Below, piece after piece: positions 9,046 through 48,463 of a DNA stretch of 51,966 nt; the first letter of the stretch is position 1; the number at the start of each line of letters is the position of its first letter. Below the pieces are notes generated by a model. That model did no database searches. It was not told the DNA's origin and saw only the letters and a program-made list of their open reading frames with translations. Location of the stretch: the IMG/VR virus record IMGVR_UViG_3300031746_000028, positions 1 through 51,966 of that record; one strand, 5' to 3'. The DNA is from a virus (taxonomy: Duplodnaviria; Caudoviricetes). The translations under genes and the position numbers were made by a program.

Positions 9046-10080
9046 ATGCCGAAGGGCGATGCTCGGAAGCTGCACGCCAGCCTCGAAGACGGCCACCTCA
9101 AGCTGTCCAACCTCTTGGTGGAGGCGCTCTGCTGCGCACCCCTAAGCTCCACTGAGATCGCCGTCTTCTTGTTCGTGGTGAGACGCACCTATGGCTGGGC
9201 CAGCCCCAAGGACAAGCGCAGCGGGCGTCTCGACGTGATGACCGCCGCCGAGATCGCCATGGGAACCGGACGGCCGCGGCGCACCGTCGAGAAGGCACTC
9301 ACCAACCTGGTGCGACTGCACGTCATCCTGATGATCGAGACAGTACCAGGGGTGATCGGCCGCCCGCGCGCCTACGGGCCGAACCCGGACGTGGCTTCTT
9401 GGGGACATACCCGCGAGTGGTTCGACTTTCACGGCAATCTGCGGGAGGCGCATGAGCGAGGTGTATACTACCCGCAAACGCGCAGTCACACTACACCATT
9501 GCGGGTAATGTCACTACCCGAAAACGACGGTGACATTACGCCAGACAGAGTAATGTCACTACCCGAAAACGACGGTGACATTACCCGCGAACGCGTATTG
9601 TCAACACCCGTAGCTCAGGGTAATGACACTACGCGAAAGAGTGTCAACGAACAGCCCCTGAACCCAAGAGTCCCAACGCCTCCCCTACCTCCTAGAGCCA
9701 TTGACGTAGACAGCCATCCTTTGACGTCCCACAAGACAAAAGGCCTAGAGCCATTGACGTCGGGACAGCCACACGGCGACGCCGCGCGCGAGGGTGGCGA
9801 AAGCCTGCCGGCCGCTGGCACGGCTGACGGGCCTGCGCTTGCGCTGGTAGGTCAACGGCCAGAGGCCGGGCCCGGCACGGCTGACGACCACGACACCCCG
9901 CAGCCCGGAGAGATCCTCGCCGAGTTCCTCACCAGGCGCGGAGCCGTCGTCCCCACATTCGACACCGTCCCCGGGCCGAACACCAACCCCATGTACCTGC
10001 GGCCTGACGGCACCCTGAAGTCGCAGGAAGAGTTGCTCGCCGACCTCGAAGCAGCCGCCGCCCAGGAGCAGGCCCCGTGA
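9046..10080 (+). CDS. Replication initiator, lambda O-like N-terminal domain
   Basis: LVEALCCAPLSSTEIAVFLFVVRRTYGW plus wHTH; internal iteron-like repeats. Confidence 0.8.
   Translation: MPKGDARKLHASLEDGHLKLSNLLVEALCCAPLSSTEIAVFLFVVRRTYGWASPKDKRSGRLDVMTAAEIAMGTGRPRRTVEKALTNLVRLHVILMIETVPGVIGRPRAYGPNPDVASWGHTREWFDFHGNLREAHERGVYYPQTRSHTTPLRVMSLPENDGDITPDRVMSLPENDGDITRERVLSTPVAQGNDTTRKSVNEQPLNPRVPTPPLPPRAIDVDSHPLTSHKTKGLEPLTSGQPHGDAAREGGESLPAAGTADGPALALVGQRPEAGPGTADDHDTPQPGEILAEFLTRRGAVVPTFDTVPGPNTNPMYLRPDGTLKSQEELLADLEAAAAQEQAP
9501..9640. repeat. Putative replication origin: two 35-bp palindromic direct repeats plus a degenerate third
   Basis: gtaatgtcactacccgaaaacgacggtgacattac at 9505-9539 and 9550-9584; each has arms GTAATGTCAC/GTGACATTAC. 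Confidence 0.75.
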
Positions 10081-10328
10081 CCACCGACACCCGCACCCCG
10101 GCCCAGGAGCGCGCCCACATGCTCGCCTCCGCCAGGGGCGCCGTCCGCGACCTCCTGGAGAACCCGGTGTTCATGGTTCCCGCCACCGGCGCCCATGACT
10201 GGTACCGCATCGGCCAGATCGTCGCCGCCAGCTACAGGCATCCGCTCGCCGGCCAAGCCGTCGCCGAGATCAGCCAACGGCTCGGGCTGGCACGCTGGGT
10301 AGACCCGCGGGAGGGGGTCCGACAGTGA
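10077..10328 (+). CDS. Hypothetical protein
   Basis: Coupled ORF (GTGA at both ends). Confidence 0.6.
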   Translation: MTTDTRTPAQERAHMLASARGAVRDLLENPVFMVPATGAHDWYRIGQIVAASYRHPLAGQAVAEISQRLGLARWVDPREGVRQ

Positions 10329-10474
10329 CCGGCCCGCTGGGTGGCGCGAAGTGGCGCGTGGACCAGGGCGACGCCCTGGAGCTGGTGCGCGGGCTCCCCG
10401 AGGGCTGCGTCAACTGCGTGGTCACGTCGCCATACTTGACACCGATACCGCAATATGGTGTCATGGTCCCATGA
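10325..10474 (+). pseudogene. Orphaned N-terminal fragment of a DNA amino-methyltransferase
   Basis: WRVDQGDALELVRGLPEGCVNCVVTSPY, then runs into HNH promoter sequence and stops. Confidence 0.8.
10436..10464 (+). promoter_or_regulatory. Sigma70-like promoter for a leaderless HNH transcript
   Basis: TTGACA-17 bp-TGTCAT (TG-extended); ATG lies 6 nt downstream. Confidence 0.55.
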
Positions 10475-11046
10475 GCACCAACACCGGACGGTTCAAGCCT
10501 GGGCAGCACTGGCGCAAGCCGAGGGAGCACTGGCAGCGTGACTGGCTGGAGCATGAGTATGTCGTAAAGGGCCGCAGCGCGGCGGAGATCGCGGACCAGC
10601 AGGGTATCACTGAGAACGCGATCTTCTACTGGCTGGACAAGCTCGGTATCCCGAGACGCACTATCTCTGAGGCCCGGCAGGTGAAGTCGTGGGGACTATC
10701 CGGCTCGGACAACGGGATGCACGGCAAGCGCGGTGCGGTGTGCCCGAACTGGCGCGGGGGCATCACTCCAGCCCGGCAGTCCTGCTACTCACATACTGAC
10801 TGGGCAACCCTGATCGAAGTGGTCTGGTCCAGGGACGGGGGGCGCTGCCAGCGGTGCCGGTGTACTGCCGCCAGCCGACGCCGGATGCACATTCACCATC
10901 TGATACCCTTCGAGCAGTGTTCAGACGCCCAGCGGATAGACGCCGAAGTCTGCCTGCTACTGTGCTCCAAGTGCCACGGGTGGGTTCACAGCAAGCAGAA
11001 CGCCGGCCGGGACTTCTTCATGGAGGGAGGTGCCACCGATGTTTGA
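10471..11046 (+). CDS. HNH homing endonuclease with N-terminal HTH
   Basis: RSAAEIAD HTH, PNWRGG, RDGGRCQRC...HIHHLIPF...LLCSKCHGWVH. Confidence 0.88.
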   Translation: MSTNTGRFKPGQHWRKPREHWQRDWLEHEYVVKGRSAAEIADQQGITENAIFYWLDKLGIPRRTISEARQVKSWGLSGSDNGMHGKRGAVCPNWRGGITPARQSCYSHTDWATLIEVVWSRDGGRCQRCRCTAASRRRMHIHHLIPFEQCSDAQRIDAEVCLLLCSKCHGWVHSKQNAGRDFFMEGGATDV

Positions 11047-12855
11047 CCCTCTCGACGGAGCGAGGTTCAAGGTGATTGAGGCGGACTGTTTGACGGCGCT
11101 GCGCGAACTACCAGACGGTTGCGTGAACTGCGTCGTAACCAGCCCGCCTTACTGAAGTAGTGGGGATTGAGGGACTATGGCACCGGGACCTGGGAGGGCG
11201 GAGAAGAGGACTGTGACCACAAGCAGGAGACCCGCCACCAGGCACAGGGAAAGACGAGTTCCCGGCAGGGTCGCTCCAACGTGGAGGCGCAGCGATCAGA
11301 GAACTTCCGAGGCGCCTGCGGCAAGTGCGGGGCCGTCCGCGTTGACCAGCAGATGGGCCTGGAGCCGACGCTCGAAGCCTACGCGGCGGGCATGGTCGCG
11401 GTCTTCGAGGAAGTCAGGCGAGTGCTGAGGCCCGATGGGACCTGCTGGGTGAATCTCGGCGACAGTTACGCCTGCGCCGCGAACGGGCGGGCAGCGAAGA
11501 ACATCGTGAACGACGACCGCGCCTTCAGGGACAAGCCCTTCGCAACTGCCGTAGGTGGCCTCAAGCCGAAGGACCTGGTAGGGATGCCGTGGCGCGTCGC
11601 CCTCGCCCTCCAGGCCGCCGGCTGGTGGCTGCGCAGCGACATTGTGTGGGCAAAGCCGAACCCGATGCCGGAGAGCATCACCGACCGCCCGACGCGGAGC
11701 CACGAGTACCTGTTCCTGCTGACGAAGAGCGCGAGGTACTGGTACGACGCTGACGCGGTGCGGGAGCCTGCCGCGACCCAAGTGGTCAAGATGCCTGATG
11801 GTTGGGATACCGGGCAGGGTGGTCATGGATCCATGCATCGTGACGGGCGCGAGAAGGGCCAGCCGAATGCCACCGTGACCTCGGGCCGCAATCTGCGCTC
11901 AGTTTGGCAGATCGCGACCGCCCCCTTCCCTGACGCCCACTTCGCCACGTTCCCGCCGAAGCTCGTGGAGCCCTGCGTCCGCGCGGGCTGCCCTTCTGTC
12001 GTTTGCTCGAAGTGTGGTTCGCCCTTGACAATCGCCGTAGATGGTGTATACTCGTTGCATGGAAACCACAAAGCCCCCAAGCAGAATACCGTACAAGAGG
12101 AACTGCGACGTGTGCGGCCGGTACTACGAGGGCAGGGGGCAGATGGCCTGCAGCCTCAGGTGCTCGAATGTCCTGGCCGGGGCCAAGAGACGCAAGCCGG
12201 AGCAGCCGTGCGAACACTGTGGGAAGATGTTCAAGCAACGGAACCGCGCGAGGTTCTGCAGCCAGAGATGCTCGACGATGTACGCGATAGGACACGGCAC
12301 CCACAATGTCTTTGCATGGGCGGGGACGGAAAAGCACCCTCCGAACTACAAGGGCGGGAAGTCGGACGACAAGGGGTATGTGAGAATCTACGCTCCCAAT
12401 CACTACCCAGGCCAGAAGACCAACTACATCATGGAACACCGCCTTGTGATGGAGAAGACCCTCGGACGCCAGCTGACGAGGAAGGAGTTTGTCCACCATC
12501 GCAACGGGATCAAGAACGACAACCGGCCCGAGAATCTCGAACTGGTAGCCCGCAACCCCCACGCCGGAGAGGTGACGTGCCCCCATTGCCAGGGGACGTT
12601 CTTCCTCAGATGAGCCCCTGCTGTTCTGCGCCCACCGTCCCCGGCCTCGTGTTCGACCCCTTCTGCGGTTCGGGCACGACGTTGGCGGTGGCATTGGCTG
12701 AGGGGCGCCGGGCGCTGGGGTTTGAACTCAACCCCGAGTACGTGCAGATGGCTGAGCAGAGGGCGCGGAAGGCCGAGCGTGAGTACCAGCCCCCGCTGTT
12801 TGCGGGGCCACCCCATGAAGGCAGGTACCGCCATGAAGAAGAACCAGCCAGCTAA
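11039..12855 (+). CDS. Beta-class N4-C/N6-A DNA methyltransferase, interrupted by an 8-nt insert (11153-11160) and a nested HNH gene
   Basis: 11039-11152 IEADCLTALRELPDGCVNCVVTSPPY; from 11161 WGLRDYG...WVNLGDSY...KPKDLVGMPWRVA...HFATFPPKLV...DPFCGSGTT...GFELNPEY. Confidence 0.88.
12025..12052 (+). promoter_or_regulatory. Internal sigma70-like promoter for the nested leaderless HNH gene
   Basis: TTGACA-16 bp-TATACT; ATG lies 6 nt downstream at 12059. Confidence 0.7.
12059..12613 (+). CDS. HNH endonuclease (HNH_3-type) with Zn-finger repeats, nested in another frame of the methyltransferase
   Basis: CDVCG..ACSLRC, CEHCGK..FCSQRC, NYKGG, EHRLVMEKTLGRQL..EFVHHRNGIKNDNRPENLEL. Confidence 0.92.
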   Translation: METTKPPSRIPYKRNCDVCGRYYEGRGQMACSLRCSNVLAGAKRRKPEQPCEHCGKMFKQRNRARFCSQRCSTMYAIGHGTHNVFAWAGTEKHPPNYKGGKSDDKGYVRIYAPNHYPGQKTNYIMEHRLVMEKTLGRQLTRKEFVHHRNGIKNDNRPENLELVARNPHAGEVTCPHCQGTFFLR

Positions 12856-13258
12856 CACCACCGTCGAGGAGAAGGAGGACCAGCTACGCAAGCTCGGCTT
12901 CATCCACGTTCCGCCACACGCCCTACGGTCTGCCCACGGCCGACAGGGGAAGTACCTCTACGTCAGTGGTGCGCAGGGTGTGCCTAAGCGCCTATACTTC
13001 TCGCGTGAGTTGGCTCGCGAAGCCGGGCTGGAGGTAGGCTCCTATGTGGACGTCTTCCAGAGCGGGCACCAGTTGGCCATCGTCGCTGGATCCGGGGAAG
13101 TCGTCGTGACCAAGATAGGTACAAGTGTGACCCTGTCCTGCTCCCGGCTGCTGGAAGAACTTGGCCTCGCGGTCGGCGACCGGCTCACGGCCGCGGTCAA
13201 GGACGGCGTGATCTTCACGGTGGCGCGATCCGCAGCCGAGAAGGCGAGTGCCCGATGA
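12833..13258 (+). CDS. Hypothetical protein, AbrB-like swapped-hairpin repeats possible
   Basis: ELAREAGLEVGSYV and LLEELGLAVGDRL repeats. Confidence 0.5.
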   Translation: MKKNQPANTTVEEKEDQLRKLGFIHVPPHALRSAHGRQGKYLYVSGAQGVPKRLYFSRELAREAGLEVGSYVDVFQSGHQLAIVAGSGEVVVTKIGTSVTLSCSRLLEELGLAVGDRLTAAVKDGVIFTVARSAAEKASAR

Positions 13259-13800
13259 CCACGCTCCTCCTGCTCACCACACTGACCAGCCCGGGCACCG
13301 ACACCGCCGTCCACCAGGAGCGTGTCGCGAAGTGCCGGGCCATCTGGCAGGCGTCCGCTCCGTGGAGCTACTCACCGGAGTTGGCCGAGTTCTTCGTGAC
13401 CGAGCATGAGCGGCAATGCGTCGGGGATCAGTGGTGGTGGAGCCTCTGCAATGCGCGGTACGCCAGTGGCCTCAACCCACGCATGAGCTGTCGCGGCGGC
13501 GGCATGTGGTCGCGTGGGCTCATGGACTGCACACAGTTGAACCGACCGCGCAGTGCCTTCCGGGACCTGGGGACGGCGAACCTGTTCGACGCCCGGGTGA
13601 GCATCCGTAACCACTGCTTTGAGGCCGGAGACTATCACCGTTGGACTGGACGCGAGGGTTGGTCACTCCTGCGCATGGTTTTCCTGCCGCGCAGTCCAGA
13701 CGGTCGGCGGGCCAGGGCCGAGGTGCCGAAGTGGCGGCGAGTCGAACGGCAACACCAGCGGTACCTACAGAGCTGGTACCAGAAACGAGGAAGCCGATGA
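13255..13800 (+). CDS. Hypothetical protein, degenerate lytic-transglycosylase-like
   Basis: ASGLNPRMS...SRGLMD...NLFDARVSI resembles SLT ES.NP..GLMQ..LFDP but lacks the catalytic Glu. Confidence 0.4.
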   Translation: MTTLLLLTTLTSPGTDTAVHQERVAKCRAIWQASAPWSYSPELAEFFVTEHERQCVGDQWWWSLCNARYASGLNPRMSCRGGGMWSRGLMDCTQLNRPRSAFRDLGTANLFDARVSIRNHCFEAGDYHRWTGREGWSLLRMVFLPRSPDGRRARAEVPKWRRVERQHQRYLQSWYQKRGSR

Positions 13801-13828
13801 GCGCCACCGTGCAGTCAGTTCGCGAGGT

Positions 13829-14059
13829 GACCGCCCCGCCGTCGTCATCCCGGCCACGAAGGGGCGCGTCATGATGTTCCGGCCGCGCCTCGATCAGTGG
13901 GCAGTGAGCATGACTGTCTCCTGGGACCCGACGCGCTTGACGATGGACCAGTTGCGGACAGTGGTTGACGACTGCGGGCGGCGGGTGGGGATACTGGACT
14001 TCCGGCCCGAGCACAAGGTGCCATTCGGGCGCTTTGTCGTGACGCACTGGGAGGCTTAG
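13829..14059 (+). pseudogene. C-terminal part of a phage RAMP/Cas7-like protein (5'-truncated, or short version from ATG 13871)
   Basis: DRPAVVIPATKGRVMMFRPRLDQW...CGRRVGILDFRPEHKVPFGRFVV: G-rich loop and terminal FGRF strand. Confidence 0.6.
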
Positions 14060-44600: not shown

Positions 44601-44894
44601 ATCCTGGACCCGAGCACCGACACACCGCTGACGGGCTTTGCTATGGCCGACATGGATACCCTGGCCGACGGGGTGTGTAGCGAGGTGACCTGGGGCGGGC
44701 AGCAGCTCGAAGATCTGGTGGTCGGGGCCATCCGCCTGCGTTTCATCTTCTCGCGGCCCGGTAGCGGCGATGATAGCCCGGTGCTCTACGCCTGGTACGC
44801 CGAGGGCCATAGATCGTTCTCACTGAGCCCCTGGCCACCCGTGCCGACGGATGTGGTCTATCCGCTGGTGGCGAGTTTCGTCAGCCAACTGTAG
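41601..44894 (+). CDS. Large receptor-binding/tail protein with N-terminal LamG-like domain
   Basis: GTVAFWF, WDLVVASWD, FDNLAIWN; DDYWNG; C-terminal ELVVNA...VEILD...LRF. Confidence 0.7.
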   Translation: MRNQFLWVNKPGFHYHNASPGNLSIVHGSKGTVAFWFCPARESGYGTIWEARAANNDLWYLWIDGGGYLVLGVYNGSTRREVTSPAPLSTSRWDLVVASWDFTPTDGVGIITLRCGDQAAQTRSDACAPRQEATRMTVGPRTTDTAYIKAVFDNLAIWNGVMTADEFTAARGDASYFLGQTYARRRLPQPEDVADASALTFLATWDGSYDAVIGGDKTAQWDVTAPNYDQFCRLSDSSPGPPLRHQFFFGMPRHDNTPDDRVPLPAVLTLISASGNDQYTTCDNVTECSRVKVTQMKNGLYEGQGYHWLRPWLTRPGAGRNNDMWRPLTFELQVHVPTGIEPINPNRQEVALGPFIWYTWKLSGNWNGSWGPGRMGKVVADAGNSTTQIKTDITGDGDDYWNGTWLTFRSGAGLGYRLQVLDYTSTSGIFTVSGALPEIPAANDRLLVDARSWLAATPEWNGAVDMNNTIEAWLSESWTGDPYGGGDDITDYVWTKLEAICGHDTTQLVRYNRGRTVVMPWLYGVGGSPDGWKFCFGRRMGSNPATFNAEIWVESLTIRGGGAYDTLDPNPTPFTRPAQINDCFMAEHHCHEVTDSGAIVAKPVHSNRAWRVAGLSRGFATMTKYASWAEVQASFNATGTWRHTGKPIYPVAPRSEEDTIIMLVQGTSAGGVAAYGYCRGIWDAVNERLTWVDETPPAGKVNPFLAQSDLTPELERDIPWGADYPPGLIAVLGLPDGTWVLTYNGNTDNPDHYVTRALFAADRWSFSHAASWWRDNPLPMGLHGVDPPGAWGNAGFVGNRDCEWQFCFDPVTRIPDRRYFGGGRLKSNVPQLGGSTDYLANPIRHMGGMVSGDFRGFRVLPHGEQVQPLASAQTGGGMHFAHGADVLLHLTPYGGEGGTRLRVSDDHEHWQEPVYTWIAAALPYCPPFHLGERTIYYIGDGDHAGALNQVVMDRDRETYYALSTGQVAGELLTPVLVKPLEGWAELVVNAAQNAGALAVEILDPSTDTPLTGFAMADMDTLADGVCSEVTWGGQQLEDLVVGAIRLRFIFSRPGSGDDSPVLYAWYAEGHRSFSLSPWPPVPTDVVYPLVASFVSQL

Positions 44895-44913
44895 GAGAGG
44901 CAGTGATGCGCCC

Positions 44914-45243
44914 ATGAGCGATCCGGGCCTGTTGGTCGCGCTGCCCGCCTGGGTGGAGACGGACCTGCGCTTCACCGTGAAGATAAATGACATCCTCGGC
45001 GCTGCCGTGGACCTGTCAGGGCTGACCCTGAAGTCGTTGATCGAGGACCCGGAGGATGGCGTCTCGGTGGGTGAGTTCACATTGACCGTCCAGACCCCGA
45101 CGAACATACTGCTCTTCGAGTGGGACGCCGCCGGGGCGGAGGCGGGGCGGGTTTACGTCTGGGATCTCAAGGCTACCGATGGTGATGGCATTCGCAGCCG
45201 GCCGGCGCACGGGACCATCGCGATGCTGCCGGTGGTGACGTAG
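44914..45243 (+). CDS. Free-standing paralogue of the C-terminal domain of 39956-41557
   Basis: GLLV.LPAWVETDLRF...HGTI.MLPVVT near-duplicate. Confidence 0.75.
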   Translation: MSDPGLLVALPAWVETDLRFTVKINDILGAAVDLSGLTLKSLIEDPEDGVSVGEFTLTVQTPTNILLFEWDAAGAEAGRVYVWDLKATDGDGIRSRPAHGTIAMLPVVT

Positions 45244-48434: not shown

Positions 48435-48463
48435 TTGACAAGCTAAAACTAACGATATATAAT
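48435..48463 (+). promoter_or_regulatory. Consensus sigma70 promoter (early)
   Basis: TTGACA-17 bp-TATAAT in an AT-rich island. Confidence 0.9.

Follow-up and report, generated by a model that had tools for sequence, protein, structure and literature searches.

Throughout this report, the window is the whole stretch of DNA that was analysed, the 51,966-base IMG/VR record IMGVR_UViG_3300031746_000028, which is about 95% complete and has a G+C content of about 66%. It derives from an uncultured sediment phage: the sequencing runs that contain its DNA are sediment metagenomes of 2019-2020, which may come from one campaign. On its + strand, positions 10325-12855 hold one DNA methyltransferase gene (the methylase) that has been invaded by two HNH endonuclease genes. 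The upstream gene, HNH#1, is free-standing. The downstream one, HNH#2, lies complete and out of frame inside the methylase, and the reading frame of the host gene stays open all the way across it.

HNH#2 matches the Pfam family HNH_3 with an E value of 8.4e-10 and has an HH...N...N motif and a C-terminal CPHC, both of which are common to it and its homologues P0002-P0006. Altogether 1093 homologues were found, with HNH_3 in all among those listed; among solved structures, none was matched by sequence at E up to 0.01. An alternative in-frame ATG upstream, at 12041, would make the protein 190 aa long, and the protein collection records it from an internal GTG. The ATG at 12059 begins 6 nt past the -10 hexamer of a promoter-like site, which would most likely yield a leaderless messenger RNA (mRNA) from this codon. 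The promoter call is a consensus match only: TTGACA-16-TATACT is the sole such site in 10000-13400 (shuffles gave 0.3) and one of three in the whole window that agree with the consensus in at least 11 of 12 positions. Only two sites in the window outscore it, both sigma-70 consensus sites with 12/12 matches (TTGACA-16/17-TATAAT, at 48435 and 50044 on the + strand) near the right end of the record. At the other end of the gene, the stop codon of HNH#2 overlaps an in-frame ATG of the host (ATGA, at 12610), and no Shine-Dalgarno sequence precedes this ATG. The G+C content at third codon positions is 0.81 in the HNH#2 frame vs 0.46 in the host frame, and on these values we rejected the idea that the insert is a real in-frame domain of the methylase.

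The host gene encodes a beta-class N6/N4 DNA methyltransferase, whose host-frame open reading frame (ORF) runs from 11167 to 12855 (562 aa). The family profile matches solved enzymes of the class, namely 2zie (5e-38), CcrM (6pbd, 1e-37) and the N4-cytosine enzyme 8s9n. Positions 16-179 of the N6_N4_Mtase profile are found before the insert and 183-220 after it, with no host sequence lost from the profile. Moreover, all 27 invariant columns of a 38-sequence alignment are retained, and the middle part is 34-62% identical to its counterparts in 80 viral loci. When 50,697 phage records were searched for sequence nearly identical to 10200-13300, no match was found, and the distant mode of that search returned short matches to the methylase core only.

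An initial annotation, made from the letters of this DNA, had described the 184-aa HNH gene nested out of frame, the promoter and ATG in front of it, the stop-free methyltransferase frame over it, the ATGA overlap at its end and the lack of intron or intein features. All of these observations stand. It had called the surrounding ORF a methyltransferase ORF; this ORF is open over its 562 aa, but it is not the whole enzyme. The catalytic SPPY motif is found in an ORF of its own, 38 codons long (11039-11155), which an 8-nt insert separates from the 562-aa ORF, and this upstream break had been overlooked.

Table 1. Features of the methylase gene and its two HNH genes; positions are those of the window.
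Feature	Position	Strand	Basis or remark
Remnant of the old methyltransferase 5' end (...VNCVVTSPY)	10325..10474	+	Matched to N-termini of homologues, best E 1.8e-8
HNH#1, free-standing HNH gene, 191 aa	10471..11046	+	Pfam HNH, E 4.7e-4
Rebuilt methyltransferase 5' end, 38 codons, SPPY then TGA	11039..11155	+	tblastn to N-termini of homologues
8-nt stop-containing insert TGAAGTAG, candidate coding gap	11153..11160	+	Placed precisely after the Y codon of SPPY and before the W codon of WGLRDYG
Methyltransferase middle part, WGLRDYG to CSKCGS knuckle	11161..12021	+	Pfam N6_N4_Mtase, 1.7e-36
Host-frame read-through of the HNH element, ~196 codons	12022..12609	+	No homologue; predicted disordered loop; no stops
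Promoter-like sigma-70-type site, TTGACA-16 nt-TATACT	12025..12052	+	11/12 consensus positions
HNH#2, homing-type HNH endonuclease gene, nested, 184 aa (span includes the stop)	12059..12613	+	+1 frame relative to the methyltransferase; Pfam HNH_3
Methyltransferase C-terminal part: CC pair, motif I (FDPFCGSGTT), ATG overlapping the HNH#2 stop	12610..12855	+	Pfam N6_N4_Mtase positions 183-220, E 1e-12

A CxxCG knuckle precedes the insert, and a CC pair follows it, immediately ahead of motif I. In 47 unique uninterrupted homologues, this position is occupied either by a Cys-rich linker of 50-85 or more residues (14 homologues) or by a 16-residue connection of the type AGCPxGGxVL (33 homologues); the classes were counted by eye, a regular expression having caught only 9. 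The Cys-rich form reads CxxCG ... CxC or CxH and connects motif I to the helix that precedes it. The nearest analogue of the linker in the window is that of locus L073, which reads AGCPKEVCSKCGKARER...TDCGCGEKFIPGLVLDPF. Both cysteine knuckles are retained in the window, and the HNH element replaces the interior of the linker, with 200 codons between the knuckles. The cysteine pairs are also present in HNH-free homologues of this subfamily. The site is thus a pre-existing, length-variable loop, and its cysteines probably form a zinc clasp.

We modelled the 562-aa read-through ORF with AlphaFold2 on a 38-row alignment. The blocks of the methylase core received per-residue confidence scores (pLDDT) of 81-97, and the insert (residues ~293-480) scores of 34-66, mostly under 50; the mean was 66.4 overall and the predicted TM-score (pTM) 0.63. 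The host-frame product of the insert is thus predicted to be unstructured and to lie outside the methylase core.

Like inteins and endonuclease-bearing group I introns, HNH#2 would be a selfish endonuclease that resides within a host gene without destroying it. Those elements are spliced out, whereas nothing at HNH#2 indicates removal. Indeed, an Rfam search over 9500-14000, at E up to 1, returned no intron family and one chance-level small RNA hit. The non-ORF part of the insert amounts to 36 nt before HNH#2 and none after it, and RNA folds (101 nt) at the gene's start and at its end were no better than shuffles (z -0.1 and -0.3). When the host-frame junctions were judged by eye, they showed no intein motifs (S|P...P|C, no His-Asn); because HNH#2 is out of frame with its host, it is not an intein domain.

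Across HNH#2 the host frame contains 0 stops, against 3.8-4.9 expected, with P values of 0.005-0.04 under three null models. When the codons of HNH#2 were permuted, the mean was 3.8 host-frame stops and 165 of 20,000 permutations had no stop (P 0.008). Synonymous resampling, in which the protein is kept, gave P 0.005 with the codon usage of the phage and 0.038 with that of the HNH gene itself. To calibrate the permutation null, we used 44 putative genes of the window, in which 289 stops were observed in the same phase where 260 would be expected; no + strand gene among the 44 other than HNH#2 is free of stops in that phase. In a sliding scan of the phage genes, 21 of 625 segments of 185 codons were open in that phase. 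Shadow ORFs are common in G+C-rich DNA, and the antisense frame over the same region is likewise open (302 aa), which needs only the absence of TTA, CTA and TCA codons. The host frame differs from it in beginning at the third codon position of HNH#2, where T makes up 7% of the bases.

Nested HNH genes were also found in related methylases. The relatives were drawn from the 80 viral loci with a homologue of the middle part of the methylase, to each of which the pieces of the window were aligned, and from scans of viral contigs and metagenomes. Three homologous methylases, in loci L077, L092 and L137, carry a nested HNH gene over which the host frame has 0 stops vs 8-13 expected (P at most 1e-4). 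The expectation was 8.3 stops in L077 (P 1e-4), 12.6 in L092, which has 40% G+C, and 9.0 in L137, and for each of the latter two the observation was reached by 0 of 20,000 permutations. The nested gene of L077 is an HNH_5 gene; those of L077 and L092 (HNH_5/HNH, Pfam about 2e-12) lie in the +1 frame between ARYxYD and RNxRSVW, an insertion site that differs from that of HNH#2, and the two endonucleases are 33% identical. L137 encodes a complete methylase ORF of 697 aa, and its nested HNH_3 gene, 40% identical to HNH#2, stands as HNH#2 does between the catalytic half and motif I, directly after an intact native linker. In the host frame of L137 (2380-3010), the element is flanked by cysteine pairs of its own, CERCC before and CPAC after, in addition to the intact upstream CxxC...CxC linker. 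A Fisher combination of five cases (the window, L077, L092 and the phages ShiLan and Cr-LKS3, described below) gave p 2e-9.

When viral contigs were scanned with the L077/L092 HNH alignment, no contigs other than these two came back, and the scan with HNH#2 returned 28 loci, of which L025 alone had a weak methylase match at the threshold used. From the metagenome scan with HNH#2 we examined the best 80 of 123 loci. Among these 80, the HNH#2 match lay between or beside methylase matches in L131, L132, L137 and L188, L166 matched HNH#1 only, and the other 75, many of them on contigs of about 1-2 kb, had no flank match. L094 and L105, considered as further nested cases, were rejected on account of their long in-frame low-complexity inserts without an HNH. 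These inserts, of ~185 residues (L094: 2437-3000; L105: 3133-3678), end in a common Cys-rich motif and contain no endonuclease in any frame.

This kind of layout was first described in 2025, in Mycobacterium phage ShiLan, where an insert in gp65, the ShiLan domain, has no methylase-frame stop and carries an HNH in the third frame (PMC11855218). Arsenault, Gosselin and Gogarten (2025, Genes 16:178; PMC11855218) found no intron or intein features in this domain, modelled it by AlphaFold as a poorly structured loop and proposed leaderless translation. The read-through idea has thus been published before, as the interpretation of the ShiLan domain. A second published case is Pacc40 gp60, and the account as a whole is based on a few mycobacteriophages, with no test of stop avoidance (PMC11855218).

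The endonucleases themselves are homologous: by tblastn, residues 51-171 of HNH#2 match ShiLan 44605-44934, inside gp65, with 36% identity (E 8e-12). The tblastn search of phage records matched 64 of them, and among the 60 listed an annotated methylase lay under the match in 12 phages, including ShiLan, Mantra, Bipolar, Pollywog and the Cylindrospermopsis phage Cr-LKS3. The window and ShiLan thus have in common an alternate-frame HNH gene within a phage methylase ORF that lacks a stop, the lack of intron or intein features, a host-frame reading that AlphaFold leaves poorly structured, and a proposed leaderless start. They differ in several respects. ShiLan gp65 and Cr-LKS3 g59 belong to another N6_N4 subfamily and carry the insert at another site: the ShiLan methylase reads DPPYG...FMGKDW and is interrupted between ...KPxxEP and ARKP, whereas that of the window reads SPPYWGLRDYG and is interrupted before motif I. 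The frame offset is the third frame there and +1 here. The ShiLan HNH has a GTG start 18 bp into the insert and no described promoter (PMC11855218), whereas HNH#2 has an ATG behind a promoter-like site with 11/12 consensus positions. Finally, the insert of the window is flanked by cysteine pairs and its host is an uncultured sediment phage of 66% GC. Because both the methylase subfamily and the insertion site differ from those of gp65, the HNH#2 locus represents a separate lineage of hidden HNH genes of the ShiLan type, and not the ShiLan element itself. In Sashimi and Tiff81, relatives of Pacc40, a homologous endonuclease is free-standing upstream of the methylase (PMC11855218, section 3.6). 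By this description, the endonuclease of the Pacc40 group is either nested or just upstream; the window has both arrangements, with HNH#1 upstream and HNH#2 nested, but unlike in the Pacc40 group its two endonucleases are mutually unrelated.

The 8-nt insert that separates SPPY from the remainder of the methylase is one of a series. Of 68 motif pairs examined, 64 are contiguous and four have an insert exactly between the Y and W codons (8 nt in the window, 4 in L044, 3 in L092 and 11 in L106). We scanned viral contigs for 1-14 extra bases between Y and W, with a pattern that allowed stop-free inserts, and obtained 17 loci. All 17 inserts (3-8 nt) carry a stop directly after Y or Y-W, and none is stop-free: they read TAG in four loci, TGAC, TGAT, TGATTAG and TGGTAAA in two each, and TAAC, TGAAT, TGGTAG, TGGTGAA and TGAAGTAG in one each. 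The frame downstream of the gap is open for 220-506 codons in 17/17 loci, at 31-67% G+C. In this census, L119 equals L120 in sequence, and L126 and L127 are contigs of L092 and L044. Gaps of 3-11 bases are present in 17 other distinct phage alleles, or 18 with the window (gap loci: the window, L044, L092, L106, L114-L130 and L132), and the insert of the window is found identically in L123 and L132. Across the 11 distinct insert types observed, the resume codon is preceded by TAG or NAY (Tyr-codon-like), or a TGG...TGG pair flanks the stop. In the window, the take-off codon is UAC and the resume codon is preceded by UAG, a match at 2/3 positions. In 18/18 distinct alleles folded, the local minimum-energy fold is a hairpin that spans the gap, in which the CCNCCNTA segment and TGGGG are paired; the RNA fold (101 nt) around the gap of the window is not more stable than shuffles (z +1.1). 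These short gaps are candidates for hopping by ribosomes, which may thereby rejoin the two parts of the methylase.

HNH#1 lies in a cassette, 10436-11046, that broke off the old 5' end right after its Y codon (10435). The frame of the remnant runs past this point into a TGA that overlaps the ATG of HNH#1, and the ATG of the rebuilt 5' end overlaps the end of HNH#1. With 20.7 bits, HNH#1 falls just under the Pfam HNH cut-off of 21.4. Full-length relatives, 47-50% identical to it and matching Pfam HNH at 1e-11 and 2e-10, are located directly upstream of the gap-bearing methylases of L116 and L119/L120; such a relative is present in 0 of 64 gap-free loci, L084 having a truncated one. Other endonucleases stand just upstream of gap-bearing methylases in L115 (293-790, HNH_3) and L128 (965-1408, LAGLIDADG), so different endonuclease families accompany the same gap site. 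The cassettes of the window and L119 have a common TTGACA-N17-(-10)-N6-ATG architecture, with similarity from the TTGACA right after the remnant TAC. L116 and L119 have the HNH#1-type layout without the remnant 5' end. L132 has the layout of the window, with a different endonuclease-like gene in the HNH#1 slot and the same 8-nt gap; Pfam confirmed no HNH in this gene, only an HTH_7 below cut-off. A homing endonuclease gene adjoining a host gene with a stop-beginning insert is thus found in the window, L116, L119/L120 and L132. HNH#1 and HNH#2 show no significant sequence similarity, and an origin of the two genes by duplication was rejected since they are not detectably related.

The mobA/gene 60 element of phage T4, an HNH homing endonuclease element, was reportedly described by Bonocora et al. 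in 2011, and it offers a parallel for the upstream part of our locus only. According to Manning and Atkins (bioRxiv 10.1101/2022.08.31.505936), T4 gene 60 combines the mobA HNH, an element-borne copy of a host segment and a 50-nt translational bypass. The two systems are alike in that an HNH gene is inserted at a conserved motif, leaving a remnant of the old 5' end and bringing a replacement copy, and in that a non-coding insert beginning with a stop directly follows a sense codon. Unlike in T4, the gap measures 8 nt and not 50, the host gene encodes a methylase and not a topoisomerase, take-off UAC and UAG match in 2/3 positions only, and bypass in the window is a candidate. Full-text literature searches, with subscription journals outside their reach, found no published description of the short SPPY/W gap.

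All together, these results suggest that the nested HNH#2 is read through in the host frame as an unspliced loop and that the methylase survives as one polypeptide, a reading to which we assign a probability of about 0.6. HNH#2 would be a free-standing homing endonuclease gene that settled in a surface loop, variable and flanked by cysteines, just before the S-adenosylmethionine (AdoMet)-binding motif I, and the element would not be spliced out. From the sequence we infer that both frames are translated: the +1 frame would yield the endonuclease, most likely through its own promoter and a leaderless mRNA, and ribosomes on the methyltransferase would read straight through the element in the host frame. 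Read-through would add about 200 hydrophilic, unstructured residues, with the ends of the loop held by the flanking cysteines, possibly through bound zinc. Stops in the host frame would be selected against, so that the methylase would stay a single and presumably active polypeptide.

Several observations weigh against this reading. For the window alone, the stop-free signal is modest, and in the same test the open host frame reached P values of only 0.06 in ShiLan and 0.023 in Cr-LKS3. Among close relatives, none turned up whose element differs in sequence from that of the window and could serve to gauge purifying selection on the host frame; over HNH#2, both L131 and L132 equal the window. 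The interior of the native linker is missing in the window, and the ends of the loop may fold unlike those of HNH-free relatives. In L100, an HNH gene inside a methylase gene comes with stops in the host frames, so read-through is not the sole outcome and a split or dead form exists too. The methylase of L100 (1814-3879) is split by its HNH gene (Pfam HNH 2.4e-10) into pieces of 133 and 319 aa, and represents either a split enzyme or a dead gene. Finally, the host gene of the window is broken upstream: the 8-nt insert shifts the frame and carries a stop, so that the methylase is made only if the gap is hopped and the gene is otherwise dead. If there is no hop, the open frame across HNH#2 would be a relic or chance.

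The main rival is indeed a dead host gene, in which the 8-nt insert at motif IV has inactivated the methyltransferase and the frame is open across HNH#2 by chance. Such a state would account for the stop and frameshift right after SPPY, the P values and the share of open 185-codon segments in the window are compatible with it, and a possible deletion variant of HNH#1 in two sequencing runs, X2 and X3 (see below), suggests a locus in flux. We nevertheless consider it unlikely, given that the ORF stays open for 562 codons past the gap with every invariant column kept, that similar gaps are followed by long open frames in all the viral loci of the census, across 31-67% G+C, and that relatives carry nested HNH genes over host frames whose openness has a P of 1e-4 or lower. 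A less probable alternative still is that of a split enzyme, whose C-terminal 81 residues, with motif I, would be re-initiated at the ATG at 12610 by coupling to HNH#2 termination and would then assemble with the N-terminal part. The ATGA overlap would suit this arrangement, as would a TAATG overlap at the same kind of junction in L092, and genes split by an inserted endonuclease are known, mobE/nrdA being a reported case. However, an ATG overlaps or abuts the HNH stop in only 2 of 5 nested cases inspected, with none at the junction in L077, ShiLan and Cr-LKS3, and the window has no Shine-Dalgarno there. Moreover, the stop-free host frame means that the N-terminal product necessarily includes the C-terminal part. 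A split enzyme would place no selection on the host frame and gives no reason for stop avoidance, yet the relatives show such avoidance, which favours the read-through loop.

The initial annotation had proposed a splicing-free accommodation of HNH#2, either as a read-through loop or as a split enzyme restarted at 12610. The stop-free host frames, here and in the relatives, favour the former and leave the latter disfavoured. The alignments with uninterrupted homologues and other insertions that it suggested revealed an open overlapping frame in L077, L092 and L137, and the structure prediction it suggested for loop tolerance gave a confident methylase core with a low-confidence loop. Removal of the insert by a self-splicing element that escaped detection, such as an unorthodox intron or intein, is very improbable. 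Unorthodox introns do exist in actinophages, as exemplified by the BAKA intron (PMC11855218, section 3.1), but the insert is nearly all ORF, the HNH is out of frame between junction residues that do not look intein-like, and neither the Rfam search nor the local folds gave any sign of such an element.

If the read-through loop at HNH#2 is combined with a hop over the upstream gap, a single methylase gene would have made two splicing-free accommodations: an 8-nt hop at SPPY/W after the HNH#1 cassette and a loop at HNH#2 clamped by cysteines. We regard this double arrangement as possible, at somewhat less than even odds. The HNH#1 cassette would have cut the gene at the catalytic SPPY/W, brought its own first 38 codons and left the 8-nt stop-containing gap. 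If both parts were true, the full enzyme would need the hop and a 200-residue read-through in one pass. The gap hop, if true, would be a miniature T4 gene 60 with 18 distinct phage alleles at 31-67% GC, and programmed bypassing would extend to very short gaps in many phages. Translation through in another frame would likewise give a selfish endonuclease gene a third way, besides introns and inteins, to live inside a living host gene. What is new here is the occurrence of the ShiLan-type layout in another methylase subfamily, at another site, with another frame offset and a recognisable promoter, in an uncultured sediment phage, together with the exclusion of host-frame stops in the permutation tests on related cases. 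In practice, gene callers give either the long fusion ORF or the HNH, not both.

The layout of the locus is supported by independent assemblies. One contig of run X3 spans 11964-12661 without a difference and confirms both HNH#2 junctions, and another X3 contig covers 10879-11200 with 0 differences, which confirms the 8-nt insert. L131 belongs to the same phage lineage and is identical to the window over about 5 kb except for a patch at 11238-11695 (~460 bases, inside the methylase), a mosaic recombinant segment with no more than 59-88% identity. L132 represents a different phage, with upstream genes that do not align and a methylase middle part 73% identical in protein. From ~11576 to the end of its contig inside HNH#2, its DNA is 100% identical to the window, which would be compatible with the element having moved recently together with host sequence beside it. 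In run X3, positions 11993 and 12632 are connected by a path of depth 25.8 vs 11.5 for the HNH path, and the unitig 12632-12779 has a depth of 46.9; this path is at most a hint of an allele that lacks the HNH. A 23-mer of the junction between HNH and methylase and a 30-mer from the C-terminal flank each had 0 exact matches in scans of viral contigs, which may exclude the window's own record, and no HNH-free allele was recovered. The HNH#1 cassette may also vary: contigs of runs X2 and X3 connect 10336 directly to 10879 and so lack 542 bases, including most of HNH#1. The joined form has a depth of 12.9 in X3 vs 7.2 for the full form, with only 29 bases on the shorter side of the joint, and it may be a deletion variant with a decaying endonuclease.

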